From positions 64,001-128,000 of the IMG/VR virus record IMGVR_UViG_3300049198_000021: a DNA stretch of 64,000 bases; one strand, given 5' to 3'. Below, one piece after another: positions 7,721 through 30,590 of this stretch. Both the position numbers and the translations under genes were made by a program. The stretch is from a virus. Lineage: Duplodnaviria > Caudoviricetes. The notes beneath the pieces were generated by a model that did not search any database, was not told the DNA's origin, and saw nothing but the letters and a program-made list of their open reading frames with translations. How positions within the stretch are numbered: the first letter of the stretch is position 1; every line of letters begins with the position of its first letter.

Positions 7721-7888
7721 TTAACGGCCCATTAACCTTTCTCCACCAGTAAGGTTAACGAAATCGGTCAATTTGTTAAGGTTAACAGCGCGTTAAGGTT
7801 AACAAACCCCTAATTTACTGCTCGTTAACCTTAACGAATATGGTTAACGGGCCATTAACCATGTTTGTTAACGTTAACGACTCGTTAA
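7721..7888. promoter_or_regulatory. Four TTAA-N7-TTAA sites (CtrA consensus)
   Basis: 7721-7736, 7782-7796, 7844-7859 and 7874-7888. Confidence 0.7.
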
Positions 7889-8058
7889 GGTTAATATGCG
7901 GAGCGATTTCGTTAAGGTTAACAGATTCGGGGCATCCGTTAACGTTAACGAGGTCTCCCCTCCCCGTTAACCATTGATCTGGAAAAAGTGCTTGACCGAA
8001 TCGGTTGCTTCTGCGACTCAGGATGCACGGCGAATCACCGCCGCTTGGAGACGACCTA

Positions 8059-8304
8059 ATGCCTTTGAAACCCGCCGCCGCTCTCAGCAAGGATAAGCTG
8101 GGCGCAAGCCACCCCGCCGCCCTCCAGCACCGGCACTTCGCCGTCATCGCTGGAATCCTCGCCAACCTCGACCGGGACAGCCTCGGCTTGACGCAAGGGC
8201 AGCACCTCAACATCTGCCAAGACTTCGCGTCCGAACTCTCCGGAACAAACCCGAAATTCGACGAGCGTCGATTCATGGTCGCTTGCGGGTTCGCGGCCCC
8301 CTGA
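8059..8304 (+). CDS. Cassette hypothetical protein
   Basis: GGAGA RBS before ATG 8059 (start corrected from track). Confidence 0.8.
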   Translation: MPLKPAAALSKDKLGASHPAALQHRHFAVIAGILANLDRDSLGLTQGQHLNICQDFASELSGTNPKFDERRFMVACGFAAP

Positions 8305-8402
8305 TGGGGTGTCTCGACGCTATCGCCCGGTTCTTTCTGGGCGTCTTTCTGTTGATCCTTGCAACTGGGCTGGCCGCGTGCCAGCCCCTTTTCTTACGGT
8401 AA
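8304..8402 (+). CDS. Micro-lipoprotein, copy 1 (32 aa)
   Basis: MGCLDAIARFFLGVFLLILATGLAACQPLFLR; hydrophobic stretch plus LAAC lipobox; TGATG coupling. Confidence 0.7.
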   Translation: MGCLDAIARFFLGVFLLILATGLAACQPLFLR

Positions 8403-8500
8403 CCAGCCGTTAAGGTTAACGCGGCGGGTAATTCGTTAAGGTTAACGCGGCGGGGTAATTCGTTAAGGTTAACGCGCCGGTTGAAATCGTTAACCATCAA

Positions 8501-8568
8501 AGTGGAAAAGTGCTTGACCGAATCGGTTGGACCACCTAGACCCGAATCACCAACAACGGAGACAGACC
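8501..8568 (+). promoter_or_regulatory. Representative cassette promoter and RBS
   Basis: TTGACC (8514), 17-bp spacer, TAGACC, CGAATCA, ACGGAGACAGACC ATG. Confidence 0.85.
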
Positions 8569-8820
8569 ATGAAACTGCAAGAAATTAGCACCACCGAGGT
8601 GGATGAATCGTGCCTCGACGACGACGGGAAGGTTCCTTACATCGCCTTGCATTGTGCAGCGACGGAAGCTGACGCGGCGTTCGTTATCGCACAAACGACC
8701 GACGGCTACGACGGACGCAGCGATTGGCGCTGGATTCGCCTCCCGAACGGCGATCTGATCCTTGGCGTGTTCCCGCAAGGCGACACCTATCTGCAATTCG
8801 CCGACACCATTGGCATTTAA
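8569..8820 (+). CDS. Cassette hypothetical protein
   Basis: Consensus RBS. Confidence 0.8.
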   Translation: MKLQEISTTEVDESCLDDDGKVPYIALHCAATEADAAFVIAQTTDGYDGRSDWRWIRLPNGDLILGVFPQGDTYLQFADTIGI

Positions 8821-8834
8821 GGGGAGGCAAGTAA

Positions 8835-9203
8835 ATGAACCGCTATTTTTACGACCCGGCGACCGCCTCGTGGGGCTCGGCTGACGACCTCGAAATCTTC
8901 GAACTCGACGACCAGAACATGGACGCCGACGAAATCGAACAGGCGCTGTGCGACGCCTCGCACGTCGGGGCCGGGCTCGGCCTGAAATACCTGCTCGACC
9001 GCCGGGCCAAGAATGAGCCCTACCGCCGGGAGAACATCGGGATTCGCGCCGTGAAGGACAACGGCAAGACCGAATGGGAAGTGGTGGAGGACGACGCCGA
9101 CGCCGACGCCTTCGAACTTTACCGGCATGACACCGGGACGCTTGTCGAAGTTTGCGCCACCCGCGAAGACGCTACCGAATACTGGGAAGCGATCACCACC
9201 TAA
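8835..9203 (+). CDS. Acidic hypothetical protein
   Basis: GGAGG RBS; followed by a terminator. Confidence 0.8.
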   Translation: MNRYFYDPATASWGSADDLEIFELDDQNMDADEIEQALCDASHVGAGLGLKYLLDRRAKNEPYRRENIGIRAVKDNGKTEWEVVEDDADADAFELYRHDTGTLVEVCATREDATEYWEAITT

Positions 9204-9208
9204 GGATT

Positions 9209-9234
9209 GGCGGGCTTCGGCCCGCCTTTCTTTT
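9209..9234 (+). terminator. Representative intrinsic terminator; similar hairpins close most cassettes
   Basis: GGCGGGC TTCG GCCCGCC TTTCTTTT. Confidence 0.85.
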
Positions 9235-9349
9235 ACCGGTAACTATTCGTTAAGGTTAACAGATTGGCTTTAGACGTTAACCATTAAAGTGGAAAAATTA
9301 GTCGAAATAGTGCTTGACCGAATCAGCGAATCATCCTAGACCAAATATC

Positions 9350-9445
9350 GGAATGACCCCTCCGGCGGGCCGCTCGATGACGGGGCGGATGGGGAGGAGG
9401 CGATGGGATAATCCGAAAGGATGAAGCCCACGTTAGCCCGCCAAA
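9350..9445 (+). ncRNA. Candidate structured, possibly pseudoknotted 5' leader RNA
   Basis: Pairings 9357-63/9387-94 and 9364-70/9436-42; GAAA hairpin 9411-22. Confidence 0.4.
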
Positions 9446-9464
9446 TTGTAACAGGAGACAGACC

Positions 9465-9842
9465 ATGCAAACCATCTGGCAATTCGAAACCAAGAACTTC
9501 ACCGTCCGAATGTCTTGCGACTACGATCAGGACACCACAGACCTTTCGTGGGATGACACCGGCGAAGTCGCTGAAAAGCTGGCAAGCGGTGAATGGGCCT
9601 GCTATACCTTCCACGCCGAAGTTATCGAAAACTCCACCGTTAACACCATCGGGGAAGACTACCTCGGCGGTTCTATCTATGCCAACCCGGAAGACTTCCG
9701 GGACCATGTGGGGCTCGCAATCAAGAGCCGCGAAGATGGGCGCAACTATGGCAGCTACTTCACGGACATGATCCGCGAAGCGATCCGCGAGGCTCGCAAG
9801 ACCTACGCCGAACAGCGCCCGCGCCTTCGCGTTCCAGCCTAA
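9465..9842 (+). CDS. Cassette hypothetical protein
   Basis: Consensus RBS AGGAGACAGACC. Confidence 0.85.
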   Translation: MQTIWQFETKNFTVRMSCDYDQDTTDLSWDDTGEVAEKLASGEWACYTFHAEVIENSTVNTIGEDYLGGSIYANPEDFRDHVGLAIKSREDGRNYGSYFTDMIREAIREARKTYAEQRPRLRVPA

Positions 9843-10023
9843 GGGAGAGGGGCCTAGCGCCCCTCTTTCTTCGCCGGTAACTATTCGTTAAGGTTAACGC
9901 ATCGGGGTAATTCGTTAACCATCAAAGTGGAAAAAGTGCTTGACCGAATCACTTGAGACACCTAGAAACGAATCAGCAATGCAGGGAGCGACTCGCACCG
10001 GGCAGCTACAACGGAGATAGGCC

Positions 10024-10413
10024 ATGCCGCAAATTTTGATCGAATACACGAAGACGGAAGTCACCCGCGAACGGGTGTGGATCGAAGCCGACTCGCCCGC
10101 TGAGGCGTTGCGGGTTGTCGAGGAATATGAATTTGACAATTCGGACGCCTACGAAGTCGATTCGCTGCGCTGGGAAATCAGCGATGCTTCTGTGCATGAG
10201 GTGGAGCCCGTGGAAGTGGAAGTGCTTGTGCGCCTCCCCGTCGCCATCACATGCGAGCGCGACAACGTGGAGACCGTGGTCCACCGCGTGGCGACCGTCG
10301 CCGAAGCCGAAGAGTGGATTGCCGTGGGTCTTGCCGACGGGTTCCTTGACGAAGACGACGTGGAACAGGGCACCTACGGAATCGATGCCCCTGAGGAGAT
10401 GATAAACCCATGA
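10024..10413 (+). CDS. Very acidic hypothetical protein
   Basis: RBS; VWIEADSPAEA motif. Confidence 0.8.
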   Translation: MPQILIEYTKTEVTRERVWIEADSPAEALRVVEEYEFDNSDAYEVDSLRWEISDASVHEVEPVEVEVLVRLPVAITCERDNVETVVHRVATVAEAEEWIAVGLADGFLDEDDVEQGTYGIDAPEEMINP

Positions 10414-10670
10414 CCATCATGCGCCCATTCGTGAACATAAACGGCACCAGCCGGGCCGCTCTTGTCGATCAGCGCCGCGCCGCGATGGAAGCCGTCCGGC
10501 TTGCCATGACGGCCCTGCAAGAGACCTGCCCGCATGGCCGCGACTACATCGGCGATCCGGCCCGCTTCGACCATGACCGGGGCGTCTATAACCGGCGGTT
10601 CGCCAAGCTGGACGAATTGCACAACGACTTGCTGGACGAAGCGTTAGCGATTCAGAATGGAGGGGCTTAG
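10410..10670 (+). CDS. Cassette hypothetical protein
   Basis: ATGA overlap; terminator follows. Confidence 0.8.
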   Translation: MTIMRPFVNINGTSRAALVDQRRAAMEAVRLAMTALQETCPHGRDYIGDPARFDHDRGVYNRRFAKLDELHNDLLDEALAIQNGGA

Positions 10671-10804
10671 GCCCCTCTATTTTTACCAGTAACTCGGCGT
10701 TAAGGTTAACACCACAGAGATCGGCCTTAACCATTAAAGTGGAAAAAGTGTTTGACCGAATCGCTTGTTTGTCATAGAACGAATCATCACAACGGAGACA
10801 GACC

Positions 10805-11134
10805 ATGAAAGACTTGCTTGACCGCTGCCTCGCCCGTCCGGGTAAAAACTTCGGAGCGGGCTATGGCTTCGCCCTCGCCTATCTGGACGACAAGATGAAC
10901 CCCGCTCACTTGCGGGACGCCGCTTGTCACATGGTCGGCAAGGCATACGGTCCCCACGGCTGGGCCGCTGCCCGTAAGAGCCCTGATCTGGCGTCATTCG
11001 TGCTGGCATACAGCGAAGCGGAATGCTTCGAAGACTTCGCAATCGAAGCGGCACAACTGCTGCTGGAATGGGGAATGCGTGGCGATCCGGACGCCGCCGC
11101 CGCGCTTCGCCTTTGCGGCCATCCGGGTTATTGA
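10805..11134 (+). CDS. Cassette hypothetical protein
   Basis: Consensus RBS. Confidence 0.8.
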   Translation: MKDLLDRCLARPGKNFGAGYGFALAYLDDKMNPAHLRDAACHMVGKAYGPHGWAAARKSPDLASFVLAYSEAECFEDFAIEAAQLLLEWGMRGDPDAAAALRLCGHPGY

Positions 11135-11281
11135 GGGAGGGGCTTCGGCCCCTTTCTTTTTATTCCTAACACATCGTTAAGGTTAACGCGCCGCCATTCT
11201 CCGTTAACCACTGGGATGGAGAAAGTGCTTGCTCGAATCACTTGATTGGTCTAGGGTGAAACTATCAAGAGGAGATTGCCC

Positions 11282-11515
11282 ATGAAAAACTTGCTCAAGG
11301 AATACCACCAAGCTGCTGACAGGGAAATCCAACGCTGGCCCGGCGTTGCGATTATCGAACGCAGGATCGGCAAACACGCCCGGCTGAGTCTGGAGTTTCA
11401 GGGCCGCAGGCGCTTTGTGATTCACCCGGCCTCACCCAGCGACGTTCGGGGAGTCCATCGCCACGTTCAGGATATTAAGCGCGTCCTGACTGAATTAGGT
11501 GCGAACCGGGTCTAA
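11282..11515 (+). CDS. HicA-like fold protein
   Basis: RRIGKH...VIHPASPSDVRG...DIKRVL resembles phage HicA-like GxH / PSDxR proteins. Confidence 0.55.
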   Translation: MKNLLKEYHQAADREIQRWPGVAIIERRIGKHARLSLEFQGRRRFVIHPASPSDVRGVHRHVQDIKRVLTELGANRV

Positions 11516-11597
11516 AAATAAGTGGAAAAAGTGATTGACCGAATCACTCTAACCGCCTAGACACGAATCACCGCAATCAAGCGGACGGAGACAGACT

Positions 11598-11954
11598 ATG
11601 AAAAACCTCGAAACCCGTATGAATAAGGGCCGGGACGGCTGGCAGGCAAAGACGGAAATCCCTCTCGAAGGGATCAGCATCACGGACGGCGACAAGGTGA
11701 AGCCGGCGATCCTGACGATCAGCACCCGCAAGCATTCGCGTGGCGGCCTCTCCACCGGTTGCAGCGTCGCCTTCCGCGACGGTAACTTCATGACGCACCG
11801 CGTCTATACCGACTTCAACGTCGCCTATACCCGCGACCCGAACGCTCGCTGCACCGAAAAGGCAATCGAGCGGATGCACTCCGAGGCGCTGGCGGACATT
11901 GCCACGATCGAATCAGCGGTTCGCGACCACTACGCCGCGCTCGAAGCGGAATAA
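11598..11954 (+). CDS. Cassette hypothetical protein; paralogue of 12115..12510
   Basis: Consensus RBS; shared motifs. Confidence 0.85.
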   Translation: MKNLETRMNKGRDGWQAKTEIPLEGISITDGDKVKPAILTISTRKHSRGGLSTGCSVAFRDGNFMTHRVYTDFNVAYTRDPNARCTEKAIERMHSEALADIATIESAVRDHYAALEAE

Positions 11955-12114
11955 GGGAAGGCGGGGAAACCCGCCTTTTCTTTTGCCCTTAGCCCGGTGT
12001 TAACCTTAACAAATCGGCCGCATTCGTTAACCATCAAAGTGGAAAAAGTGCTTGACCGAATCGCTTGTTCAACCTAGACACGAATCACCGCAATCAAGCG
12101 GACGGAGACAGACT

Positions 12115-12510
12115 ATGAACGAGACCACCGTCAAAAAAGACCACTGGGGTAAGTGGATTGCTGAAACCCGCACCCCGCTTCCCGGCATTCGCAGCATGAG
12201 CGCCACGAACAACGAAGAGCGCAACGAACCCGCCGCCTTGCTTGTCAGCACCTACAAGGACTCGCGTGGCGATCTGGTCAGCAACGCAATCGTGATCTTC
12301 ATCACGGACAGCGGCCACCGCACCGCAATCGGCGGCCCGACCGGCGACTACAGCCGCACCATCCGCCGCGAACGCGGCGCACGCGTCACCGAGAAGAAGC
12401 TTCGCAGCTATCACGCCGAATCGCTCGGCTATATCCCGCAGGTCGTCGCTGATCTGGCGAACCACTACAATCAGGGCGACCCGCTCGCCGAACGGGCGAA
12501 GGCGGCCTAA
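12115..12510 (+). CDS. Cassette hypothetical protein; paralogue of 11598..11954
   Basis: Start corrected to MNETT; identical leader. Confidence 0.85.
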   Translation: MNETTVKKDHWGKWIAETRTPLPGIRSMSATNNEERNEPAALLVSTYKDSRGDLVSNAIVIFITDSGHRTAIGGPTGDYSRTIRRERGARVTEKKLRSYHAESLGYIPQVVADLANHYNQGDPLAERAKAA

Positions 12511-12674
12511 AAAGACTGGCGGGCTCCGGCCCGCCTTTCTTTTGCCGGTAACCAACCGTTAAGGTTAACGCGACGAGATAATTAGTTAACCATTAAAGTG
12601 GAAAAAGTGCTTGACCGAATCAGCGAGTCACCTTATCAACGAATCACCGCAATCAAGCGGACGGAGACAAGACC

Positions 12675-13025
12675 ATGTGCAACATCGGCGGGCAGATTGG
12701 CCCCTTCATGTATAACCCGGCCTGCAAGCCGGTTGAACGCAAGGTCGGCAAGGTGACGTTCCTTGTCGGCATCGCGACCGCCTACAACGCGTTCGGCCTG
12801 ATTGGCACCGAACACAACGGCATCTTCATTCTCGACGACACGAACATGACCGTCGTCATGGACCGTCACAGCGAAGGCTCGGCTGGTGGCTTCGGCCCCT
12901 ACGGCTCGCAAGTCGCTGAGCGTGACCGCCTGCTCGCCCTGAGCGACGCGGACTTCCTCGCCTTCATTCGCAGCAACCCCCGCTTCCGTGGTGTGGACCT
13001 ACCGAACGTGGGGAAGGCCGCATGA
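12675..13025 (+). CDS. Cassette hypothetical protein
   Basis: Consensus RBS. Confidence 0.8.
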   Translation: MCNIGGQIGPFMYNPACKPVERKVGKVTFLVGIATAYNAFGLIGTEHNGIFILDDTNMTVVMDRHSEGSAGGFGPYGSQVAERDRLLALSDADFLAFIRSNPRFRGVDLPNVGKAA

Positions 13026-13324
13026 TCGACCGGGACAAGTTTCTCGCCATGCTCGACACACTGGAGTGTCGCGGCCTCATCAACGCACCAACAGCCTATT
13101 CAGGACGGGGAATGTATGGAAAGCGTTGCATCGCCCTGACTGGGGATTCGGTCAGCGAATGGGGCCTCGCAATCCAAATGGCGGCCATTGCCGACGAATA
13201 CGACGTGACGCCCTACGACCTGCCTGAGCCCTCGACCGATTCGATGGGACGGGGCATCGTCCTCTATTGGCGGGGCCTCGAATGGCCGGAAGACCGCCGC
13301 GATCCGGACGAAGACGAATACTAA
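13022..13324 (+). CDS. Cassette hypothetical protein (YSGRGMYGKRC / DSMGRG motif)
   Basis: ATGA overlap; terminator follows. Confidence 0.8.
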   Translation: MIDRDKFLAMLDTLECRGLINAPTAYSGRGMYGKRCIALTGDSVSEWGLAIQMAAIADEYDVTPYDLPEPSTDSMGRGIVLYWRGLEWPEDRRDPDEDEY

Positions 13325-13474
13325 GGGAAGGCGGGGCAACCCGCCTTTTCTTTTGCCCTTAGCCCGGTGTTAACCTTAACAAATCGGATCAAGTAGTTAA
13401 CCATCAAAGTGGAAAAAGTGCTTGACCGAATCGCTTGTGCAACCTAGAACCGAATCACCAACAGGAGACAGACC

Positions 13475-13783
13475 ATGCGAATCAGTCACATTGAAATGAC
13501 CATCACCCTCGAAGACGGCCAGACCGTGCAGGGCCTTATCAGCCCGGAAGGCGAATCGCGCTGGGGCAATGACATTCCCCACCTCGCCGCCGCCGTGATA
13601 CCCATGGAAGCCATGGCCGCCGCCTTGCAGGAAAACGACGCGTGGGAACGCGAAGAAGAAGACGAAGACGAATACCACGGCGAATGCGGCCAGTGCGAAG
13701 GCACCGGCACAATCGAAGGCGGGCTTGGCGGTGATGGGGACGACGAAGAATGCCCTGTCTGTGACGGAAGCGGGGAACTCTGA
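13475..13783 (+). CDS. Acidic protein with DnaJ-type zinc-finger repeats
   Basis: CGQCEGTG ... CPVCDGSG. Confidence 0.8.
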   Translation: MRISHIEMTITLEDGQTVQGLISPEGESRWGNDIPHLAAAVIPMEAMAAALQENDAWEREEEDEDEYHGECGQCEGTGTIEGGLGGDGDDEECPVCDGSGEL

Positions 13784-14025
13784 TGCACAAGACCCCGCCC
13801 GCAATCGACACCAGCGTTACCGTCCAACTCTGGACGCCCGGCGGCTTGATTGTCAGCATCCCCGCCGGGTTCATTACGTCCGATCCCGTCCGGGCTTCGC
13901 TCGACAAGCGGACGCAAGAAGGCGACACACACGCGGCAATCACCATGGCCCGGCACACCGGCCTAGACGTAACCATCCGCCGGGAAACCCAGACCACCGT
14001 TCGCGCCTCCGATCTGGAGGCGTGA
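13783..14025 (+). CDS. Cassette hypothetical protein
   Basis: TGATG coupling. Confidence 0.7.
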   Translation: MHKTPPAIDTSVTVQLWTPGGLIVSIPAGFITSDPVRASLDKRTQEGDTHAAITMARHTGLDVTIRRETQTTVRASDLEA

Positions 14026-14151
14026 GCGCCCGTTTACCAGCCGTTAACCTTAACAAATTGAACTAACTTGTTAACCGCTGATCTGGAAAAAGTGCTTGAC
14101 CAAATGCAACGGCTCGCCTAGAAACGAATCAGTTGAAACGGAGACAAGACC

Positions 14152-14709
14152 ATGTTTGATGCACTCGACCAGAAGACTTTCATCCTTTGCGGGCTCGCAA
14201 TCGAAGCGGCGGCGGATGACGACGAATCAATCGACAAGCGCGACCCGTCAAAGCTGGAATATCAGCGCGGCTCCGAAGTCACCGGGGTGGCATGGCTGAG
14301 CGGCTATGACTCACGGGGTGACGCCCCGCCTTGCCTGCAAAAGGTGATCGACTCGCACTATGACGCGCAAAACGCCGAATGGAAGCGGCAATATCCGGAC
14401 CGCCCCGATCTGCACCTTTGCGTGGATTATGCCGACGCCCTCCCCTACGCTGGGGAAGCTGAGGAATGGCTGGACGCCGTGCTGAGCGGCCCGGACGGGC
14501 GCGGGGAAGCCGCCTATCTGCAAATCGAAGTCACTTTCGACGACGATACGGTTCAATGGTGGGCGCGCTTTACCGATGAAATCAACGCCCCGCTATCCGA
14601 AGGCGGGCGCGGCGAAATGGACGCCGAAGCGTTCCTTGCGCTGGACGACGACGCGCTGGAAACGCTCGCAAAGGAGATTGCCGAGTCGGCTTATGACTAC
14701 GGCGCTTGA
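14152..14709 (+). CDS. Acidic hypothetical protein
   Basis: Consensus RBS; 185 aa. Confidence 0.85.
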   Translation: MFDALDQKTFILCGLAIEAAADDDESIDKRDPSKLEYQRGSEVTGVAWLSGYDSRGDAPPCLQKVIDSHYDAQNAEWKRQYPDRPDLHLCVDYADALPYAGEAEEWLDAVLSGPDGRGEAAYLQIEVTFDDDTVQWWARFTDEINAPLSEGGRGEMDAEAFLALDDDALETLAKEIAESAYDYGA

Positions 14710-22118: not shown

Positions 22119-22122
22119 CACC

Positions 22123-22893: not shown

Positions 22894-22916
22894 ACCGGGA
22901 GGGGCTTCGGCCCCTC

Positions 22917-23576: not shown

Positions 23577-23751
23577 CAACGGGCGGGGAGGGAAAACCCT
23601 CCCCGTTGCCGATTCGTTCCATGGTTAACGGAATCGGAGGATTTGTTAAGGTTAACGAATGGGTTAAAGTTGTTAACCATCAAAGTGGAAATAGTGCTTG
23701 ACCGAATCGCCTATGCCGACTAGAAACGAATCAGTTGAAACGGAGACAGCA

Positions 23752-23904
23752 ATGGCGAAAAACTGGGAAGCGTTCTTTGCAGCGATGAGCGATTCCGATC
23801 TACTATCGGCACAGCTTACTTGGGGCCGTGAGGGGGAGGACAGCGAAAACTTGGAAGCTTGGGCTGCCGTGAATCAGGAAGTTTTCGAACGGGGTTTGGA
23901 GTAG
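23752..23904 (+). CDS. Small acidic protein
   Basis: Start corrected to MAKNW. Confidence 0.75.
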   Translation: MAKNWEAFFAAMSDSDLLSAQLTWGREGEDSENLEAWAAVNQEVFERGLE

Positions 23905-24059
23905 GGGCTGCGGCCCCTCTCTTTCTGCTCTTAACCCGGCGTTAAGGTTAACGTAATGAGGTAAATCGTTAACCATAGAAGTGGAAATTAAATGGAAAAA
24001 GTGCTTGACCGAATCAGCGAATCACCTTAGACCGGGATCACCAACAACGGAGACGACCG

Positions 24060-24293
24060 ATGGAACTCGCTGAATACTTCACTTGCCCGGACCGCCCGAC
24101 CTTCCTGCAATTCGGCAAGCTGGTGAATGCCCGCCTCGAATCGCGCTGCGGCCTCGGCATCCTCGACTTGCCGGATCAGGATTATTCCAGCCTTCACGAA
24201 GACTGGGACGGGACCGTCCAGCACGCCTGTGACATCGCAGACGAAATCCTCGAAGAAGAAGGCTTCGGGATGGATGAAGATTACGACTTTTGA
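24060..24293 (+). CDS. Small acidic protein
   Basis: RBS and terminator. Confidence 0.8.
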   Translation: MELAEYFTCPDRPTFLQFGKLVNARLESRCGLGILDLPDQDYSSLHEDWDGTVQHACDIADEILEEEGFGMDEDYDF

Positions 24294-24460
24294 GAGAAGG
24301 GGCTTCGGCCCCTTTTCTTTTGCCCTTAACTCCGCGTTAAGGTTAACAGATCGGACCACTTTGTTAACCATTAAAATGCAAGCAAGTGGAAAAAGTGCTT
24401 GCACGAATCAGTGGCCTAGGGCAAACGAATCAGGCGACACAGAGCCGCCGGAGACGACCT

Positions 24461-24760
24461 ATGACAACCCTGAGCATCAAGACCGCCCGCCCCGCCGCCA
24501 CCATCCGCGCCGAGCGCATCGCCTACGATCGCATCCCCGCGACGCCCGCCGAGCGCGCCACCGCCCTCGCCCTCCTGATCGACGGGGACGCATGGACCCT
24601 CGCCGAATACGTCGCGTGGATCAACCGCGACGCCGCCACCTTCGCCCTCATGGGTGCGGCTGAGTGGGCCGAGCGCGGCATCACCACCGCTTCCGCCCTT
24701 GGCGACCTTCTGGACGCCGAGAATGAGCGCAACCTGAGAAAAGAGGCCATGTATGGCTAA
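24461..24760 (+). CDS. Cassette hypothetical protein
   Basis: Start corrected to MTTLS. Confidence 0.8.
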   Translation: MTTLSIKTARPAATIRAERIAYDRIPATPAERATALALLIDGDAWTLAEYVAWINRDAATFALMGAAEWAERGITTASALGDLLDAENERNLRKEAMYG

Positions 24761-25157
24761 GAAACTAGCCGCCGCTTATGCGGCTGTCACCGAGGCACAC
24801 AAAGCCCACGAAGACGCCCTAAACGCCGCTGAGGCCGCTTTGACGGATCATGTGGAGCAAATGCTAACCGAACTCGCCAAGCGGTTCCCGCGCCGACGCT
24901 TCTACGCCTCATCAGGGATGGGAAGCCTTTCTATCGAAGTCTATCCCGGACCTAAGCCGCGTTACGCACACCACCCGCGCCAGCCTTACAAATGGTTCTG
25001 GGGCGGAATGTGGGGACCGGATAACACTTGGCGATTCCTGTGGCAGGATTGGGAAGACCTGCTCGATTCGTTCATCAAAGAGACCGGGCAGACCGCTAAC
25101 GATTACGTCAACTTCACCCGTGAACTTGACGTGAGGGGCACACGCTACAAGGATTAA
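24753..25157 (+). CDS. Cassette hypothetical protein
   Basis: Overlapping start; GAGG RBS. Confidence 0.75.
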   Translation: MAKKLAAAYAAVTEAHKAHEDALNAAEAALTDHVEQMLTELAKRFPRRRFYASSGMGSLSIEVYPGPKPRYAHHPRQPYKWFWGGMWGPDNTWRFLWQDWEDLLDSFIKETGQTANDYVNFTRELDVRGTRYKD

Positions 25158-25292
25158 GGGAAGGGCGGACCGCCGCCCTTTTCCTTGTTAGTGGTTCGTT
25201 AAGGTTAACCAATCCTGCCACTTGAGTGGAAAAAGTGCTTGACCGAATCAGTGGAGCCGCCTAGACCGGGCTGACCAACACGGAGATTTTCT

Positions 25293-25544
25293 ATGACCTC
25301 GATTCGCGACCTCGCCCACGCCCGCCACCTCGTCGCCACCGGCGAAGCCGCCGCTCGCATGGCCCGCACCTCGCAGCAGGCCGAAAACCTGCGGATCGCG
25401 TTCGTGGAGCGCTGGGAGGCGCTTGGCGACCTCACCACCTGCGCCGCCATTGATGAAGGCAAATGGCTTGACAGCCAAATCAAGGAACTGGATTGCGACT
25501 GGGGCGACCCTGTATCGCCTGAATGCGAATGGCACCTGCACTAA
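25293..25544 (+). CDS. Cassette hypothetical protein
   Basis: RBS and terminator. Confidence 0.8.
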   Translation: MTSIRDLAHARHLVATGEAAARMARTSQQAENLRIAFVERWEALGDLTTCAAIDEGKWLDSQIKELDCDWGDPVSPECEWHLH

Positions 25545-25711
25545 GGGCGCGGGCTTCGGCCCGCCTCTTGGCTGGTAACGGTTTGTTAAGGTTAACGCCC
25601 GACCGGAATTTGTTAACCATCAAAATGGAAAGTAAGTGGAAAATTGCTTGACCGAATCGGCTTAGACTGGCACTAACGAATCACCGCAATCAAGCGGACG
25701 GAGACAAGACT

Positions 25712-25798
25712 ATGAGCCGACACCAGAAACGCCGCCTTGCCGCCAAGCGTGCGCGCATCGCCATTCTTTCCTCGTGGATCGCAAAGGGCCGCCGCTAA
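25712..25798 (+). CDS. Arg-rich 28-aa peptide
   Basis: MSRHQKRRLAAKRARIAILSSWIAKGRR after the consensus RBS; TAATG coupling to next gene. Confidence 0.7.
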   Translation: MSRHQKRRLAAKRARIAILSSWIAKGRR

Positions 25799-26064
25799 TG
25801 GCTGGCTTCTGGGATCGCGTGGACACCCTCGAAATGGTGGAACTCTACGCCGAGGACAACGGGCAGATTGCCAGCGAAGAGGAGCTTTCCAAGCGCTTTG
25901 ACGCCGAAATCCTTCCGCTCGTGCTGGAGCAATACAGCGAGTCCGATACGGTCGCAATCAATGAGGCTTTCAACGATTGGACCGATTCGCTCTGCAAGGA
26001 CGGCGAAATCCACCCGGATCAATACGATTCTTACTGCTACGTTGGGAGGCTGGCAGACGACTAA
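25798..26064 (+). CDS. Very acidic small protein
   Basis: Start MAGFW; terminator follows. Confidence 0.8.
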   Translation: MAGFWDRVDTLEMVELYAEDNGQIASEEELSKRFDAEILPLVLEQYSESDTVAINEAFNDWTDSLCKDGEIHPDQYDSYCYVGRLADD

Positions 26065-26173
26065 GGCGAGGGGCTTCGGCCCCTCACCAAACTTTTTTCG
26101 TAATTAGTGGAAAAAGTGCTTGACCGAATCAGTTGGCTCGCCTAGAAACGAATCAACAGCAACGGAGGCAGTC

Positions 26174-26326
26174 ATGCAGATCAACACTTACCACGTTTAC
26201 ATCAACAACACCTTTTCCGGGATCATCTCGGCGGTGTCTTACCGGCAGGCTCTCAAGCGCGCCAAGGCAAAGCATCGCGGCCCGGTTGACGTGATCGGGT
26301 TCGTCTCCGCAAAGGCGAAGGTTTAA
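26174..26326 (+). CDS. Small basic protein; paralogue of 31030..31302
   Basis: Start corrected to MQINT. Confidence 0.75.
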   Translation: MQINTYHVYINNTFSGIISAVSYRQALKRAKAKHRGPVDVIGFVSAKAKV

Positions 26327-26488
26327 GGGGAGGGGCTTCGGCCCCTCTTTCTTTTTGCCTGTTACGATCTGTTAACCTTAACAAATATGGTTAACAAATT
26401 AACGTTTGGCGTTAACCATTAAAGTGGAAAAAGTGCTTGACCGAAGCAGTGACTCGTGTGAAAACGAATCATCAATCGGAGACAGATC

Positions 26489-26668
26489 ATGAAGAATCGC
26501 AACACCCTTGACGCCCGTTACAGCATCCGCCTCGAATGGTGCGGACACGCCACGCAACAATGGGTCGCCCGCTTCTGTGGTGATTGGCTGGGCTGCGATG
26601 CAACCCGCTCGGGCGCTGAGGAAATCGCCCGGCTTTATGAGCGCGACCGCTGGGCGGTGGCGGCATGA
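26489..26668 (+). CDS. Small hypothetical protein (59 aa)
   Basis: MKNRNTLDARYSIRLEWCG...ARFCGDWLG; consensus RBS; absent from track. Confidence 0.75.
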   Translation: MKNRNTLDARYSIRLEWCGHATQQWVARFCGDWLGCDATRSGAEEIARLYERDRWAVAA

Positions 26669-26841
26669 AACCGAAACACCCTTGCAGCGTAAAGCGCGAC
26701 GCAATTTTTCTGGCCGCTGTAAAGCATCCCTTCACCCGGTGGAACGAACACACAGGCGAACAACAAGCCAGATTTATCAAGCAGGCCACGCATATCCGGG
26801 AGCATCTGCGGGATTACGAACCGGGAGCATTCATCGACTAG
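26665..26841 (+). CDS. Small hypothetical protein (58 aa)
   Basis: ATGA overlap; ends at a terminator. Confidence 0.6.
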   Translation: MKPKHPCSVKRDAIFLAAVKHPFTRWNEHTGEQQARFIKQATHIREHLRDYEPGAFID

Positions 26842-26990
26842 CAAGAGGCGGGAGCGATCCCGCCTTTCGCATTGTTAACCCAGTGTTAAGGTTAACATAT
26901 TGGTCTAAGTTGTTAACCATCAAAGTGGAAAAAGTGATTGACCGAATCAGCAAATCGGCCTAGACCCGAATCATCAACCGGAGACAGATC

Positions 26991-27119
26991 ATGCAAAACA
27001 TCCGCAAGAACCCCATCGCCGCCTCGCTCGCCAGCGCCCACCTCGTCCCTCGCAAGGTTCGCGCTCGCAAGGGCAAGGGCTCTTTCCGCCGCAACCCGAA
27101 ACACCGGGGCGCGGCGTGA
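26991..27119 (+). CDS. arfA: ArfA-like alternative ribosome-rescue factor (42 aa)
   Basis: MQNIRKNPIAASLASAHLVPRKVRARKGKGSFRRNPKHRGAA matches the ArfA pattern N.I...L....L..R.....KGKGS..R..KH. Confidence 0.75.
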   Translation: MQNIRKNPIAASLASAHLVPRKVRARKGKGSFRRNPKHRGAA

Positions 27120-27460
27120 GCGACCGCATCCGCCCCGTGGTTTTCGACTCGGCCCAGATCGAGCCCTTTGCCGCTCGCATCATCGGCATAGCCGCTTCGC
27201 AATTCTGTCGCCTCAAGGAGCGCGAGAAAGAGACCGGAGAGAAGTCGGACCCCTTCGACATGGAAGACGCTCTGATGCACCTCTGGTGGGCTCTCAAGGG
27301 GCTTGACCACATCGCAATAGCGTTGCGCGGCGGCAGGGATTGCGACGACCCGTCTGGCGTTCATTTTTCCATGGTGATGAACGCAGAACACGCCCGGATT
27401 CGCCGCCTTATCATGGAAGAACTCGGAGTCGATCCCGGATCACACCCGCGCTGGAAATGA
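27116..27460 (+). CDS. Cassette hypothetical protein
   Basis: GTGA overlap; terminator follows. Confidence 0.7.
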   Translation: MSDRIRPVVFDSAQIEPFAARIIGIAASQFCRLKEREKETGEKSDPFDMEDALMHLWWALKGLDHIAIALRGGRDCDDPSGVHFSMVMNAEHARIRRLIMEELGVDPGSHPRWK

Positions 27461-27613
27461 GGGGCTTCGGCCCCTCTTTCTTTTCTGGTAACCGTTCGTT
27501 AACCTTAATAAACGGCCCGAAATCGTTAACCATCAAAGTGGAAAAAGTGCTTGACCGAATCAGCGAATCGGCCCATACCCGAATCACCGCAACCAAGCGG
27601 ACGGAGACAGTCA

Positions 27614-27904
27614 ATGCAGACCAACGATCCCAGCGCCGTCACCCACCACAACGGAGGCACCACCTTCACCGGCGACGCCATCCACCTCTACCGCGCCGTG
27701 ACCCTCAAGGGCGCTCTCAAGCTGCACCGCGATTGCGGCATGATCCCGACTCGCGGCATGACCATCACAAAGATGTTCGCCATCGCCCAGCAGATCACCG
27801 GCAAGAAGTATAAGCGCGGCGGCCATGATGCGGCCATCACCGACCTGACCGCGTGGATCGAAGCCGCCAAGGCATCCATGCCGATCATCGACGAGCGGAC
27901 CTGA
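27614..27904 (+). CDS. Cassette hypothetical protein
   Basis: Start corrected to MQTND. Confidence 0.8.
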   Translation: MQTNDPSAVTHHNGGTTFTGDAIHLYRAVTLKGALKLHRDCGMIPTRGMTITKMFAIAQQITGKKYKRGGHDAAITDLTAWIEAAKASMPIIDERT

Positions 27905-28132
27905 AAGGAGATTGGTTAACGGGGAAGCCCTCCCCGTTAACCATATTTCCGGCTGGTAACCAGTCGTTAAGGTTAACAGCGCCGCAGCATTCCTTAACCA
28001 TCAAAGTGGAAAGTAAGTGGAAAAAGTGGTTGCACGAATCAGCGAATCGGTCTAGACCCGAATCACCGGGCGGCACCTACTGACTGGCAGAGCAGCGGCA
28101 AGGCTCGCCCGGTAAACAACAGGAGACAGACC

Positions 28133-28294
28133 ATGTTCGAAGTGATCACTACGCTCCGCACCTTCTATGTGCAGGCTGACACTTTCAACCTCGCCGTCCT
28201 CTCGGCTTATCAATTCATTCTGGACGACGAATCGATCCTCGGCATCAAGACCGACGGACCTGCAACGTTCATCATCGTGGAGATCGCAGCATGA
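28133..28294 (+). CDS. Small hypothetical protein (53 aa)
   Basis: MFEVITTLRTFYVQAD...; consensus RBS; absent from track. Confidence 0.7.
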   Translation: MFEVITTLRTFYVQADTFNLAVLSAYQFILDDESILGIKTDGPATFIIVEIAA

Positions 28295-28509
28295 TCAGCA
28301 AGAAAGACGCAATCGCCAAGGCAATCGCGGCTGGAGCCTCGCAAGAGGAAATCGACCGCCAAGCCGCAAACTACGTCCGCCAAGTGGGCAGCGTGCCTTT
28401 CAACAACATGATTCGCGCCCTTAACCTAGGCCCGTGGCTCAACACGGTTGACGACTGGACCCCGCTGGCAGCAGCCCTGACCGCGAGGGGATTGGCGCGA
28501 AAGCGCTAA
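28291..28509 (+). CDS. Cassette hypothetical protein
   Basis: ATGA overlap. Confidence 0.75.
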   Translation: MISKKDAIAKAIAAGASQEEIDRQAANYVRQVGSVPFNNMIRALNLGPWLNTVDDWTPLAAALTARGLARKR

Positions 28510-28629
28510 TTCCTTAACGGAATAGGGGAATTTGTTAAGGTTAACCCGAATTAAGAATAAAGTGGAAAAAGTGCTTGACCGAATCGGTTAACCATCCTAG
28601 AAACGAATCAACAGCAACGGAGACACACC

Positions 28630-28842
28630 ATGAAGATCAAGATCAAGACCACCGCCCGCTACACCGCCAAGCGCAAGGCTGCTATCATCGCCGACGTGGA
28701 CAACGGCACTACCACCCTCGAAGAGGTTTGCAGCCTGCACAACATCACAAGCGAAGAGTTCGACGGCTGGCGCAAGTCGCTGGACCGCTCGGGACAGCAG
28801 GGGCTTCGGATCACCCGGCTGCAACACTACCGGGCAGCATAA
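28630..28842 (+). CDS. sciP: SciP / DUF1153 family CtrA-inhibitory protein homologue
   Basis: T.R...RKA..I..V..G...LEE.C......EEF..W...LDR.G..GLR.TRLQ.YR matches alphaproteobacterial SciP along its length. Confidence 0.88.
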   Translation: MKIKIKTTARYTAKRKAAIIADVDNGTTTLEEVCSLHNITSEEFDGWRKSLDRSGQQGLRITRLQHYRAA

Positions 28843-28972
28843 GGGAAGGGGCTTCGGCTCTTTTTCTTTTGCCTTTAACCCAGTGTTAAGGTTAACAAGT
28901 CAACTGAATTAGTTAACTAATTAGCTGGAAAAAGTGCTTGACCGAATCAGCGAATCGGCCTAGACCCAAGCC

Positions 28973-29140
28973 ATGGAAATGACCCTTTCAGAAATCCGCC
29001 ACAAGCGTGACCGGGCAATCGTTCAGCGCCGACTCGGCGAGGAACGCCGCCGCCACGTTAACCAATGCGTCGCCGACATCATCGCACAAGGAAAGATGGA
29101 AGAGCGCCGCCAGACCACCCGACGGGAGGAAGACCAATGA
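28973..29140 (+). CDS. Small basic protein, probably leaderless
   Basis: ATG 6 nt after the -10 hexamer, no RBS; ATGA overlap with next gene. Confidence 0.6.
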   Translation: MEMTLSEIRHKRDRAIVQRRLGEERRRHVNQCVADIIAQGKMEERRQTTRREEDQ

Positions 29141-29337
29141 CAGACCGCCGATTCGTAATTGTCGAAAACGCCGGATATGAAGGCGAGCAAGACATCACCC
29201 ACTTTCTCACCTTGCGGGAGGCATTCGCCTATCAGCGCGGCCATTATGAGCCGGACGAGATCGAAGAATTGCACGTCGATATTCGCCAAGACTGGACGGA
29301 CGAAAACGGCGATTTTCATCAGGAATATGTCTATTAG
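29137..29337 (+). CDS. Small acidic protein
   Basis: GGAGG RBS; start MTDRR. Confidence 0.75.
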   Translation: MTDRRFVIVENAGYEGEQDITHFLTLREAFAYQRGHYEPDEIEELHVDIRQDWTDENGDFHQEYVY

Positions 29338-29404
29338 GTGGAAAAAGTGCTTGACCGAATCGGTGGCCTATGCGAAAACGAATCATCGAAACGGAGACAA
29401 GCAA

Positions 29405-29599
29405 ATGACCACCATCCTGATCCTCGCCGCCGCCGCCCTGATCTTCGCCACCGTGGCATTTTTCAAGGCCCGCGCCGAACTCGCCGCTCACGCCGCCGAA
29501 CAGGCAAGCAAGCATATCCCCAACCCCACCATCTACAGCGGCCCGCGCTTCACCGCACATGGCCGGGAAATCCAACAGACCGGACGGCGGATCATCTGA
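29405..29599 (+). CDS. Small membrane-anchored protein
   Basis: MTTILILAAAALIFATVAFF N-terminal hydrophobic helix. Confidence 0.75.
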   Translation: MTTILILAAAALIFATVAFFKARAELAAHAAEQASKHIPNPTIYSGPRFTAHGREIQQTGRRII

Positions 29600-29755
29600 G
29601 AAAGGGGCGGGAGAAATCCCGCCCTTTTCTTTGGCCGGTAACCGGGTGTTAAGGTTAATAAAACGGTGAAATTCGTTAATCATCAAAGTGGAAAAAGTGC
29701 TTGACCGAATCGGTTGGCGAGTTTAGACCCGAATCATTGGAAACGGAGACAGACC

Positions 29756-29953
29756 ATGAGCAAGCCCACCGAACAAGCAATCGCCGCCGACCTCGACCTT
29801 TGCGACATGATCCTTGCATTCGGAACGCCCGCCGCCAAGCGAAAGGCCCGCGCCCACCGCAAGGCTTGTTTCGCAGAAATCGCCCGGATGAACGCCGAGG
29901 CCGGGACTGACAAACTGAGCGATGATGAATTGCTCGCTGAATTGATGGCCTGA
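29756..29953 (+). CDS. Cassette hypothetical protein
   Basis: Start corrected to MSKPT. Confidence 0.8.
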   Translation: MSKPTEQAIAADLDLCDMILAFGTPAAKRKARAHRKACFAEIARMNAEAGTDKLSDDELLAELMA

Positions 29954-30141
29954 TAGGAACCGGCCCCTGACAACAGGGGCCGGGACCCTAATTCACTGAG
30001 AACAAGGGCCGGGCTCTAAAATCGTAAATTCAGGTTAACCTTAACAGATCGGTCGAAATCGTTAACTATTAAAGTGGAAAAAGTGCTTGACCGAATCGTT
30101 TGGCGCGTTTAGACCCGAATCATTGAAAACGGAGACAGACC

Positions 30142-30417
30142 ATGGAAAGATTCGAACTGACGGGCTCGGGCATCAGCGACGGGCAGAATCCGGAAAAACT
30201 GCTTGCTGCCGCGAAAAAGTGCGGCCTTCGGAATCCCCGACTCGCCTATCACTACGGCTGGTCCAATCAGCCGAAAACGATTCGTTTCAGCGCCGAAAAC
30301 TGGGAAGCTGCCGATAAGGTCGCCGATCTGGTGCGAACCGAGTTTTACCCGGAAAACGCCGAGGGCCGTTTGTGCCCGATGATTCGGGCCTATCCGGTAA
30401 AAGCCCCAGAAGCCTGA
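30142..30417 (+). CDS. Cassette hypothetical protein
   Basis: Consensus RBS. Confidence 0.8.
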   Translation: MERFELTGSGISDGQNPEKLLAAAKKCGLRNPRLAYHYGWSNQPKTIRFSAENWEAADKVADLVRTEFYPENAEGRLCPMIRAYPVKAPEA

Positions 30418-30590
30418 TCCCGGAAAAGCCCGATTCGCCGAATCGGGCTTTTTCCTTTTTCGGTAACCCTGCGTTAACCTTAATAAAACGGCGAAAATCG
30501 TTAACCCTAAAAATCGGCCTTTCTGGAAAAAGTGCTTGACCGAATCGGCCTTTTCTGGAAAAACCGGACCACCGCAAAGGGAGAAAAGAC

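Follow-up and report, generated by a model that had tools for sequence, protein, structure and literature searches.

This locus raises the question of which protein reads the TTAA-type boxes standing in front of nearly all early promoters of a phage, and what these boxes do there. The window analyzed is a 64,000-nt stretch (positions 64,001 to 128,000 of IMG/VR record IMGVR_UViG_3300049198_000021) of a metagenomic phage genome of 176.5 kb, whose nearest cultured relatives infect Erythrobacter. Between 6483 and 30546 of the window lie 39 near-identical sigma-70-type promoters, each heading a cassette of one to three small ORFs with an intrinsic terminator at its end. The promoter word around the -35 hexamer occurs in 40 plus-strand copies (7988 to 30546); the copy at 27303, inside an ORF, was left out, giving n = 39. 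A Pfam scan of 27 cassette proteins matched none of them (0/27).

Table 1. Coordinates of the box array, its boundaries and the example modules (positions in the window).
Feature	Position	Strand	Remarks
Large terminase gene (terL)	4754..6487	+	Pfam Terminase_6C, E 4e-16; left boundary of the array
Gene-free box cluster 1	6483..6675	none	12-mer, three C box/12-mer units, two further 12-mers
Gene-free box cluster 2	7720..7975	none	four perfect TTAA-N7-TTAA, ~14 GTTAAC
Cassette promoters (n = 39)	7992..30546 (first to last -35)	+	36 with upstream box module
Long-module example	9876..9975	+	A box 9876-9881, 12-mer 9887-9898, C box 9914-9922
Long-module example, core	UP-like tract 9924-9939, -35 9940-9945, -10 9963-9968	+	read directly
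Long-module example, GANTC	9946-9950 and 9970-9974	+	read directly
Short-module example	14744..14806	+	A box 14744, 12-mer 14755-14766, mirrored A box 14772-14777, -35 14796
Internal box cluster	23061..23177	none	six GTTAAC; heads the promoter at 23195
SciP/DUF1153 homologue, 70 aa	gene 28630-28842; cassette 28575..28842	+	PF06627, E 3.5e-20
PhoH-like gene	31956..32774	+	Pfam PhoH, E 5e-67; right boundary of the array

The upstream module has a fixed order: terminator, GGTAAC (A box), 5 bp, the 12-mer GTTAASSTTAAC, 15 bp, the C box GTTAACCAT, 17 bp and the -35 hexamer. Boxes sit between terminator and -35 at 36 of the 39 promoters and also in the gene-free clusters; the first-pass annotation, which had placed them at nearly every promoter, was right for these 36 and not for 11535, 26120 and 29351, which have no boxes. 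The 12-mer is found within 130 bp upstream at 36/39 promoters, with the A box exactly 11 bp ahead of it at 22. The C box was detected in 28 promoters (19 exact, 9 with one or two changes that keep TTAA), and it starts 26 bp ahead of the -35 in 20 of them, so it ends 17 nt before the -35 and not roughly 18 bp as first described. The described junction GGTAAC-N5-GTTAA was recovered in 29 copies with at most one mismatch, against 0.33 expected from shuffles, but the middle word, given as TTAAC, is really the 12-mer GTTAA-SS-TTAAC, present in both orientations (21 GG, 13 CC). Seven promoters have a short form, with a mirrored A box in place of the C box; at 14744 this yields two A-box/half-12-mer full sites in mirror image, and the form is seen further at 15762, 16402 and 21693.

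The array had been said to start at 7721, which is wrong, as its true start is 6483, right behind the large-terminase stop. Cluster 1, found there, repeats a unit of C box, 4 bp and 12-mer three times with a period of 42 bp, and cluster 2 continues into the first cassette promoter. Degenerate GGATCG repeats precede the internal cluster. The gene order terL, array, phoH is the order at the Lacusarx terminal repeat, which lies between terL and a PhoH-like gene, and both Lacusarx and L02 likewise have a box-rich terminal region behind terL. The block is also syntenic with the phiCbK terminal repeat. End repeats were not found in the phage record. Judged by gene order and sequence, the best explanation of the block is an early, terminal-repeat-type region of a phiCbK-like phage with presumed Erythrobacter-type hosts.

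The per-position information of the junctions is about 2 bits in the boxes and near 0 in the N5, N15 and -35/-10 spacers. This bears on the idea that the 130-bp junctions are mainly recombination substrates for cassette shuffling, or packaging signals, with TTAA words that regulate nothing. The junction is indeed repeated about 40 times, cassette content varies among relatives (18% of the query covered at 79% identity against XM05), and the clusters adjoin terL and iteron-like repeats. However, such substrates would be conserved over their full length, and here only the boxes are kept while the spacers are free; moreover, CcrBL9 and MMDA13 carry the same boxes on quite different promoters. We therefore regard this explanation as highly improbable.

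The enrichment of the boxes was evaluated by a scan with consensus words allowing mismatches, and not with the PSSM of PMC9437464. Perfect TTAA-N7-TTAA sites number 8 in the window versus 0.22 expected from shuffles, and the four reported at 7721-7888 are exactly where the first-pass annotation had placed them. The word TTAACCAT occurs 34 times versus 0.85 expected from shuffles, 33 of these copies lying at 6514-28595. The region holds the 8 perfect sites, 23 GTAA-N7-TTAA sites and others, with half-sites 11 bp apart from start to start. In the whole genome, 97 of 107 GTTAAC words fall within window positions 1-32 kb, as do all but one of the 49 copies of the 12-mer. With at most one mismatch, 48 of 53 TTAA-N7-TTAA sites in the genome are located in 6400-30600, which is 13.7% of its length, compared with 4.4 +/- 2.1 expected there under a first-order Markov model; their normalised positional entropy is 0.55, versus 0.86 for random placement. 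The comparison with shuffled controls that had been suggested thus showed strong enrichment, and the box array in front of the early promoters is confirmed and highly non-random.

The distances between the boxes and the promoter are regular as well. If transcription of the long-module example starts near 9975, as inferred, its three boxes span about -99/-94, -88/-77 and -61/-53. The A box and the first half of the 12-mer make up one full site (about -99 to -84) whose half-sites are spaced 11 bp, and the C box, an extended half-site at about -61 to -53, follows 21 bp (two helical turns) past the second half-site of the 12-mer. From this second half to the next half-site the distance is 21 bp in the long form and 11 bp in the short form. 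The 12-mer itself is the best-conserved unit, and its half-sites are 6 bp apart, which is not canonical CtrA geometry. Variants keep the phase: in six promoters the entire set of boxes is shifted outwards by 10-12 bp, and in seven the last half-site pair has 11-bp spacing. Across relatives, the distance from C box to -35 peaks at 17-20 nt and 27-30 nt. Most phasing variants are duplications of an 11-12-bp unit, so the phase is kept by construction. The core promoters are strong sigma-70-type ones in which an UP-like A-tract is followed by a consensus -35 and, after a 17-bp spacer, a -10; because of the complete -35 and the UP-like tract there is no obvious need for an activator, and the cassette promoters look self-sufficient.

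If CtrA binds these boxes, their main role could be titration: about 190 TTAA words per genome copy would bind up CtrA~P while the phage replicates, and the effect would be to switch off the host CtrA regulon (motility, pili), not to regulate the phage promoters. The 32-kb bins containing the array do hold 194 of the 289 TTAA words of the genome, the gene-free clusters 1 and 2 have no promoter of their own, and the phage SciP described below would act in the same direction. A pure sponge, however, would not need boxes kept constant in distance and helical phase relative to the -35, nor a full module kept at 36 separate promoters, and titration as the main role is quite unlikely.

The assignment of the boxes to CtrA was examined from the host side. 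GTAA-N7-TTAA and TTAACCAT, the latter being the published ungapped CtrA half-site, are CtrA-type words as the first-pass annotation had stated; the 12-mer is non-canonical and is not enriched in host genomes. CtrA is encoded by 54 of 61 genomes sampled from the presumed host family (a GTDB family of sphingomonads), DUF1153 by 38/41 and GcrA by 41/41, and TTAACC words were present at all 31 sampled ctrA promoters (31/31), about 59 times the background. The 12-mer occurred once each in 6 of 101 genomes of this family, no more commonly than a reversed control. Of 185,579 species genomes, a single bacterial chromosome had the strict composite site, so the host regulon is without this arrangement. 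No CtrA-like winged helix (PF00486) was found in the phage.

When cluster 1 was compared by blastn with 50,697 phage records, 28 records matched, all of them phages of Caulobacter, Brevundimonas, Erythrobacter, Sphingobium, Sphingomonas or Citromicrobium. The 12-mer is present in 18 copies per terminal-repeat copy of CcrBL9, with 1 elsewhere, and is also concentrated in the terminal repeats of CcrSC; in Lacusarx it lies within the final 10 kb, and in L02 behind terL, where the 25-bp unit of cluster 1 recurs. The repeats of these phages have been reported as dense in CtrA sites. A 25-bp unit identical to that of cluster 1 stands in the gap region of Sphingomonas phage MMDA13, an unrelated phage that by tblastn has only the portal, two structural proteins and a MazG-like enzyme in common with this phage. 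These data support the view that the box words are of predicted CtrA type and limited to phages whose hosts, Caulobacterales and Sphingomonadales, carry CtrA.

Most of the phages that have the words come from one broad phiCbK-like lineage with a core proteome in common, so the binder could be a conserved phage protein. In that case, which the first-pass annotation had named as its refutation, an XRE protein or a small unknown protein of the phage would read GTTAAC-type words and switch the early cassettes off (or on), and the likeness to CtrA motifs would be coincidence or mimicry. The 12-mer is near-palindromic, occurs in either orientation and is missing from the host regulon, three XRE (HTH_3) proteins are encoded by the phage, and phiCbK encodes the early XRE regulator TgrL. 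Against this, the half-sites of the 12-mer, only about 7 bp from centre to centre, are presumably too close for a classical HTH dimer, and no regulator common to MMDA13 and this phage was detectable by tblastn in spite of the identical unit. In addition, the box words are those of the CtrA box that replaces the -35 in phiCbK, and their perfect versions are CtrA-dependent (PMC9437464). A phage-encoded reader is therefore considered unlikely.

We favor the reading that host CtrA~P on the phased boxes sets the early cassettes and that a phage SciP closes the early window, to which we assign a probability of roughly 0.6. Together with a probable SciP-family partner at the C box, host CtrA~P would assemble cooperatively on the sites, adjoining the contact zone of the RNA polymerase alpha subunit. 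Bound CtrA~P would then determine how fast or when the early cassettes are expressed, all of them together, according to the CtrA activity of the infected cell; the control may be activation, or delay or repression as at Caulobacter pilA. In the clade of this phage, the SciP homologue would convert or block bound CtrA, by which the early window would be closed and the host CtrA regulon damped. CtrA titration, with ~190 TTAA words per genome copy, would likely be a side effect. The CtrA-type boxes thus probably tie early phage gene expression to host state, but gating by swarmer versus stalked cells, as originally proposed, is not supported, that logic being Caulobacter-specific.

The SciP homologue encoded within the array scores 72.4 bits against PF06627 (curated cut-off 23.5) and is 48% identical over 62 residues to the DUF1153 gene product encoded upstream of ctrA in a Sphingomonadaceae genome; it is without about 25 N-terminal residues of host SciP. 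The promoter of its cassette is the only one with a C box in the -35/-10 spacer (28587-28595), has no upstream C box, and keeps the spacer box in two close relatives; under the favored reading, this C box would be in a repressing position. The SciP or 'extended CtrA box' derived from ChIP is (G/A)TTAACCAT(A/G) (Fumeaux et al. 2014, PMC4083442). The C box coincides with the nine bases at the core of this motif. Preceded by a 5' G, the core is found in 29 copies in the phage genome, but the base 3' of the phage C box is mostly C or T and not A/G.

The homologue might also bind the C box alone, as an HTH repressor of the usual kind that acts on the early array independently of CtrA. The C box matches the core of the SciP ChIP motif, the gene lies inside the array with a box in its own promoter spacer, and C boxes are frequent in phages having the gene (29, 34, 18, 14 and 14 copies) and rare in CcrBL9 (2 per terminal-repeat copy), which is without it. 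However, a DUF1153 gene was not found in L02, Lacusarx, CcrBL9, CcrSC or phiCbK, all of which have sites; L02 has 19 C boxes and 39 12-mers, and MMDA13 also has C boxes with no DUF1153 gene found. As the A box and the 12-mer would be left unexplained too, SciP acting alone is very unlikely.

The cassette promoters contain a further word, CGAATCA, once directly after the -35 and once after the -10. Its GANTC lies at +6 from the start of the -35 in 36 of 39 promoters and at +30 in 25 of 39, and its lower strand, TGATTCG, fits YGAKTCG. GcrA boxes (methylated GANTC, YGAKTCG) of sigma-70 promoters are reported in the -35/-10 spacer or just past the start (Wu et al. 2023, PMC9976885). The phage words, which are predicted to be GcrA-type, resemble them in being GANTC words in sigma-70 promoters and differ in position, at about -27 and -3 from the inferred start versus the reported -30 +/- 2, -20 +/- 1 and +5 to +30. 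No GcrA or CcrM-type gene was found in the phage. An extended reading, which we offer tentatively and hold to be rather doubtful, would place the terminal-repeat early genes under a three-input copy of alphaproteobacterial cell-cycle logic (GcrA, CtrA and phage SciP). With GcrA acting at the paired GANTC boxes, the promoters would fire while the incoming DNA is methylated, and the phased CtrA boxes would scale the output to host CtrA activity. The phage SciP, shortened at its N terminus, would then shut down the whole array, the promoter of its own cassette and the CtrA regulon of the host (motility, pili).

Among known systems, the use of sites for a host master response regulator that would tie the early phage program to the developmental state of the host resembles the Spo0A boxes of phi29-family phages, as summarised in PMC9437464, although regulator, host and motif are different and those phages have few sites versus more than 100 here. 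At Caulobacter pilA, expression is lowered and delayed by three additional CtrA sites upstream, which tune its timing and level and are not needed for firing (Rijal et al. 2024, PMC11264516). The phage promoters similarly have several predicted CtrA sites ahead of the promoter proper, but pilA belongs to the host and carries a CtrA box at its -35, whereas the phage -35 is a normal sigma-70 hexamer.

The closest systems are alphaproteobacterial phages (phiCbK-like, Lacusarx, vB_BsubS-Delta, MMDA13) with CtrA-site-dense terminal repeats or gap regions (Mascolo et al. 2022, PMC9437464), and the clustering observed here matches that published signature, in agreement with the earlier remark on CtrA sites in such phages. 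The TTAA-type sites are likewise skewed to one region, intergenic and ahead of small genes of unknown function, and their place after terL is by gene order equivalent to a terminal repeat. Words are also held in common, including an MMDA13 repeat ending in the C box. The phiCbK promoters of gp005 and gp018 have TTAA-N7-TTAAC at the -35, and the terminal-repeat promoters of gp008, gp009 and gp012 have GGTAAC-N5-GTTAAC there, which equals the A box and the first half of the 12-mer. Probes of gp005 and gp018 bind CtrA~P, and their promoter activity is lost in a ctrA-ts strain (PMC9437464). In phiCbK the box thus replaces the -35 and activation has been shown, whereas here complete -35/-10 promoters are preceded by a three-part module at about -100 to -53. 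Neither the 12-mer nor the composite module is described in PMC9437464, and Erythrobacter phages were outside that analysis. CtrA-site-dense regions and CtrA-dependent promoters were known already from related Caulobacter phages; this phage differs by the three-part module on complete promoters, to which it adds the SciP homologue and the paired GANTC boxes.

The promoters of the small cassettes had been described in the first-pass annotation as preceded by an array of CtrA-type sites. All of its counts hold, and they lie far above chance when compared with shuffled sequences or a Markov model. The window contains eight perfect TTAA-N7-TTAA sites (0.22 expected), four of them at 7721-7888, together with 29 copies of GGTAAC-N5-GTTAA (0.33 expected) and 34 copies of TTAACCAT (0.85 expected). 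When up to one mismatch was allowed, 48 of 53 TTAA-N7-TTAA sites fell within 13.7% of the genome, where the Markov model expects 4.4 +/- 2.1, and the positional entropy of these sites was 0.55, compared with 0.86 under random placement. Window 1-32 kb holds 97 of the 107 genome copies of GTTAAC and 48 of the 49 copies of a 12-mer, GTTAA-SS-TTAAC (GTTAASSTTAAC). The promoter word itself occurs in 40 plus-strand copies at 7988-30546, and 39 were used in the analysis.

The junctions were aligned on the -35, and a fixed order of elements was read off. An intrinsic terminator is followed by the A box (GGTAAC), 5 free bases, the 12-mer, 15 free bases, and the C box (GTTAACCAT); a 17-nt A-rich, UP-element-like tract then leads to the -35 (TTGACC), with GANTC directly 3′ of it. 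The core promoter has a spacer of 17 bp in total, a TAGAAA-like -10, a second GANTC, and a conserved ribosome site, the word GGAGACAGACCATG being exact in 13 cassette ORFs. Across 17 canonical modules, the boxes carry about 2 bits per position, and the two box spacers and the core-promoter spacer carry about 0. Because the boxes are conserved while the spacers are free, the boxes are under selection and the junctions are not simply young duplicates.

The 12-mer is present at 36 of the 39 promoters and the C box at 28, and the A box lies exactly 11 bp before the 12-mer at 22. In 20 promoters, the 12-mer begins 53 bp and the C box 26 bp before the first T of the -35. Six promoters have a shifted form, in which a duplicated UP-like unit places the entire box set 10-12 bp farther out, and seven have a short form, in which a mirrored A box takes the place of the C box, giving two full sites mirrored about the 12-mer centre. 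Half-site spacing is 11 bp between the A box and the 12-mer's first half, 6 bp between the two halves, and 21 or 11 bp between the second half and the next site. Relative to an inferred start close to the A of the second GANTC word, box positions are about -99/-94, -88/-77, and -61/-53. Across relatives, the distance from the C box to the -35 shows one peak at 17-20 nt and another at 27-30 nt, which fits a dependence on the face of the helix, with relatedness and the duplication mechanism also contributing. Outside the early region there is a single C box, which, with a near-copy 13 bp later, is in the spacer of a promoter-like site at 44690-44730 (TTGACA, 17 bp, TACCAT) that precedes a 597-aa tail tube gene (44807-46600, Pfam Phage_tube_2).

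The GANTC words of the cassette promoters (window 7992-30546) are paired and always read CGAATCA. CGAATCA directly follows the -35 in 36 of 39 core promoters, and the GANTC after the -10 is found at one fixed position in 25/39 and within a small window in 31/39. On the lower strand, CGAATCA reads TGATTCG, a putative GcrA box that fits YGAKTCG; GcrA boxes are reported either between the -35 and -10 or shortly downstream of the start (PMC9976885). Bins containing the array hold 63 of the 78 genome copies of CGAATCA, and the promoters of relatives (n=89) keep GANTC after the -35 in 77 cases and after the -10 in 70. Neither GcrA (PF07750) nor a CcrM-type methylase (PF01555) was found in the whole phage genome.

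The record, of which the window covers bases 64001-128000, was rated complete by CheckV (176.5 kb), and its nearest cultured relatives are the Erythrobacter phages XM05 and vB_EliS-L02 (L02). The paper on L02 presents it as the first Cbk-like Erythrobacter phage and contains nothing on CtrA or phage promoters, its sole match to "promoter" being a reference title. All DNA between the large terminase gene (terL) and the PhoH-like gene belongs to the box array block. The terminal repeat of the Sphingobium phage Lacusarx is also located between terL and a PhoH-like gene, in the same order, so the array is most likely a collapsed terminal repeat and hence would be the first DNA into the cell. The iteron-like repeats may mark an origin, a site of packaging, or the boundary of a repeat. 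The small cassette ORFs number about 53 (window 8059-31302); none of the 27 proteins scanned had a Pfam match, and phiCbK repeat genes were likewise reported without Pfam matches.

Coordinates of the array, its flanks, and candidate regulatory genes (window positions unless marked as genome positions)
Feature	Position	Remarks
Large terminase gene	4754-6487	Left flank of array
Gene-free box cluster 1	6483-6675	Further box copies
Iteron-like repeats (n=7), unit ATGGATCGAGGCCATTTTGCC	7505-7667	Between the two gene-free box clusters
Gene-free box cluster 2	7720-7975	Further box copies
GANTC pair, example promoter	9946-9950 and 9970-9974	
Degenerate iteron echo, TTTTGGATCG units	22917-23060	Directly before the internal box cluster
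Internal box cluster	23061-23177	Further box copies
SciP/DUF1153-family gene, 70 aa	28630-28842 (cassette 28575-28842)	Inside array; Pfam search of phage genome
PhoH-like gene	31956-32774	Right flank of array
XRE-family (HTH_3) genes (n=3)	genome 137878-138033, 138365-138517, 141147-141308	Outside window

The earlier interpretation is supported in part. Several independent lines identify the words as CtrA type: TTAACCAT is the published ungapped CtrA motif, and the A box with the half-12-mer is the same variant as the GGTAAC-N5-GTTAAC that occupies the -35 place in the phiCbK gp008, gp009, and gp012 promoters. Against the CtrA reading, the unit that is best conserved, the 12-mer, lacks the form of a canonical CtrA site. 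In the phiCbK terminal repeat, the gp005 and gp018 promoters have TTAA-N7-TTAAC where the -35 would be; probes of these two bind CtrA~P, and expression from their promoters is lost in a ctrA-ts strain (PMC9437464). Copies of the 12-mer cluster in the terminal repeats of the Caulobacter phages CcrBL9 and CcrSC, in the final 10 kb of Lacusarx, and, in L02, 3′ of terL. CcrBL9, CcrSC, and Lacusarx are among the phages with reported CtrA-site-dense repeats (PMC9437464). A related array fragment with five modules was found in a 2468-bp contig labelled as a Bryobacterales MAG (JAYVXT010000122.1), which is almost certainly mis-binned; its C box lies 14 nt from the -35, compared with 17 nt in the query phage.

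When cluster 1 was compared by blastn with 50,697 phage records, 28 records matched, and the hosts of all 28 phages are Caulobacter, Brevundimonas, Erythrobacter, Sphingobium, Sphingomonas, or Citromicrobium. These results bear on whether a phage-encoded protein binds the box words, which we consider unlikely. The phage does have three XRE-family genes, the obvious candidates if CtrA is not the binder; an early XRE regulator (TgrL) is known in phiCbK, and the carriers are mostly of the phiCbK-like lineage. However, the 28 include Sphingomonas phage MMDA13, an unrelated 64-kb siphophage, and its gap region contains a 25-bp unit (C box, 4 bp, 12-mer) identical to that of the query phage, while no regulator common to the two was found by tblastn. 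In MMDA13, 8 of 12 GTTAAC copies lie within 240 bp, and its gp57 gave weak HTH matches. A CtrA-like OmpR-type winged helix (PF00486) was not found anywhere in the query phage genome.

The host family was sampled via a Sphingomonadaceae contig bearing one composite site (12-mer, 15 bp, C box). In the sampled genomes, CtrA was detected in 54/61, DUF1153 in 38/41, and GcrA in 41/41. Each of the 31 ctrA promoters examined has TTAACC words; their density is 2.2 per 200 bp, compared with 0.037 in flanking DNA, and they often stand within T(T/G)(T/A)A(A/C)-N6/7-TTAACC. The ctrA promoters of this family (L037-L058 and L015) have a conserved layout, in which a TTTAC-type half-site is separated by 5-6 bp from TTAACCTTTT and GGTTAAT follows after about 25 bp, and in one genome (G001) a DUF1153 (SciP-type) gene lies immediately upstream of ctrA. 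Taken together, the host range of the blastn matches, the MMDA13 unit without a common regulator, the lack of an OmpR-type winged helix, and the presence in the host family of CtrA and of the words at its promoters favour a conserved host protein as the binder, and no known candidate other than CtrA has such specificity. Points against CtrA also come from the chromosomes. The 12-mer was rejected as a normal host operator, its frequency in 101 host-family genomes being no higher than that of the reversed control, and the strict composite was found, among 185,579 species genomes, in one bacterial chromosome only and in one mis-binned phage fragment. In addition, the promoters look complete without an activator.

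The sole chromosomal composite is at 6759-6793 of a 418-kb Sphingomonadaceae MAG contig (L010, identical to L026), with a TTAC-N7-TTAA site before it. It is flanked by two divergent genes, one TolC-type outer-membrane protein-like and the other large secreted protein-like, as judged by translation.

The SciP homologue encoded in the array is 48% identical to the product of the DUF1153 gene upstream of ctrA in a Sphingomonadaceae genome and is without about 25 N-terminal residues of the host protein. Its promoter is the only one with a C box in the -35/-10 spacer, a position kept in two close relatives, and the upstream C box is absent; the core of the C box is the motif that was proposed for SciP from ChIP in Caulobacter (PMC4083442). 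The gene is present in XM05 and in four metagenomic relatives (G102, G103, G104, and G110), and is absent from L02, Lacusarx, CcrBL9, CcrSC, and phiCbK. As these five phages have the sites without the gene, phage SciP was rejected as a universal binder and is an add-on, not the primary binder. A homologous-protein search with it gave matches in close phage relatives only.

The box set is phased and conserved, it keeps to the early, terminal-type region, and phages of CtrA-bearing hosts carry it. We propose that CtrA~P would assemble on the boxes next to the UP-like tract, probably joined at the C box by a SciP-family partner, and would set for all early cassettes jointly how strongly or when they are expressed. 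In the clade of the query phage, phage SciP may close the early window later. CtrA would also be titrated, as a side effect. Regarding the direction of control elsewhere, -35 boxes in phiCbK activate and the Delta cluster represses (PMC9437464), and upstream CtrA sites at pilA delay expression (PMC11264516).

By reading a host master regulator, a phage can match the timing of its programme to host physiology. For CtrA, the idea of "lytic deferment" has so far been based on few promoters of Caulobacter-type phages. Here, about 36 promoters use one compact phased module, with natural variants that are long, long plus one helical turn, short palindromic, or box-free, and the relatives XM05 (on Erythrobacter sp. 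JL475) and L02 are cultured. The variant series allows the action of upstream CtrA boxes on complete sigma-70 promoters to be studied, and could show whether SciP-family proteins act at the extended box and whether CtrA control of phages reaches the sphingomonads, where CtrA is not known as a cell-cycle driver.

Clustered CtrA boxes in alphaproteobacterial phages, in either terminal repeats or gap regions, are a published kind of system (PMC9437464). We found no earlier description of the 12-mer and three-part module, of such a module placed before complete sigma-70 promoters (about 36 junctions), of the long, shifted, and short forms in which it naturally occurs, or of the module in Erythrobacter phages. 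Nor did we find it described together with a SciP homologue encoded by the phage and with GANTC boxes in pairs; searching the literature for phage-encoded SciP gave nothing relevant. That CcrBL9, CcrSC, Lacusarx, and MMDA13 have the same 12-mer points to a composite operator, so far undescribed, that many alphaproteobacterial phages share.
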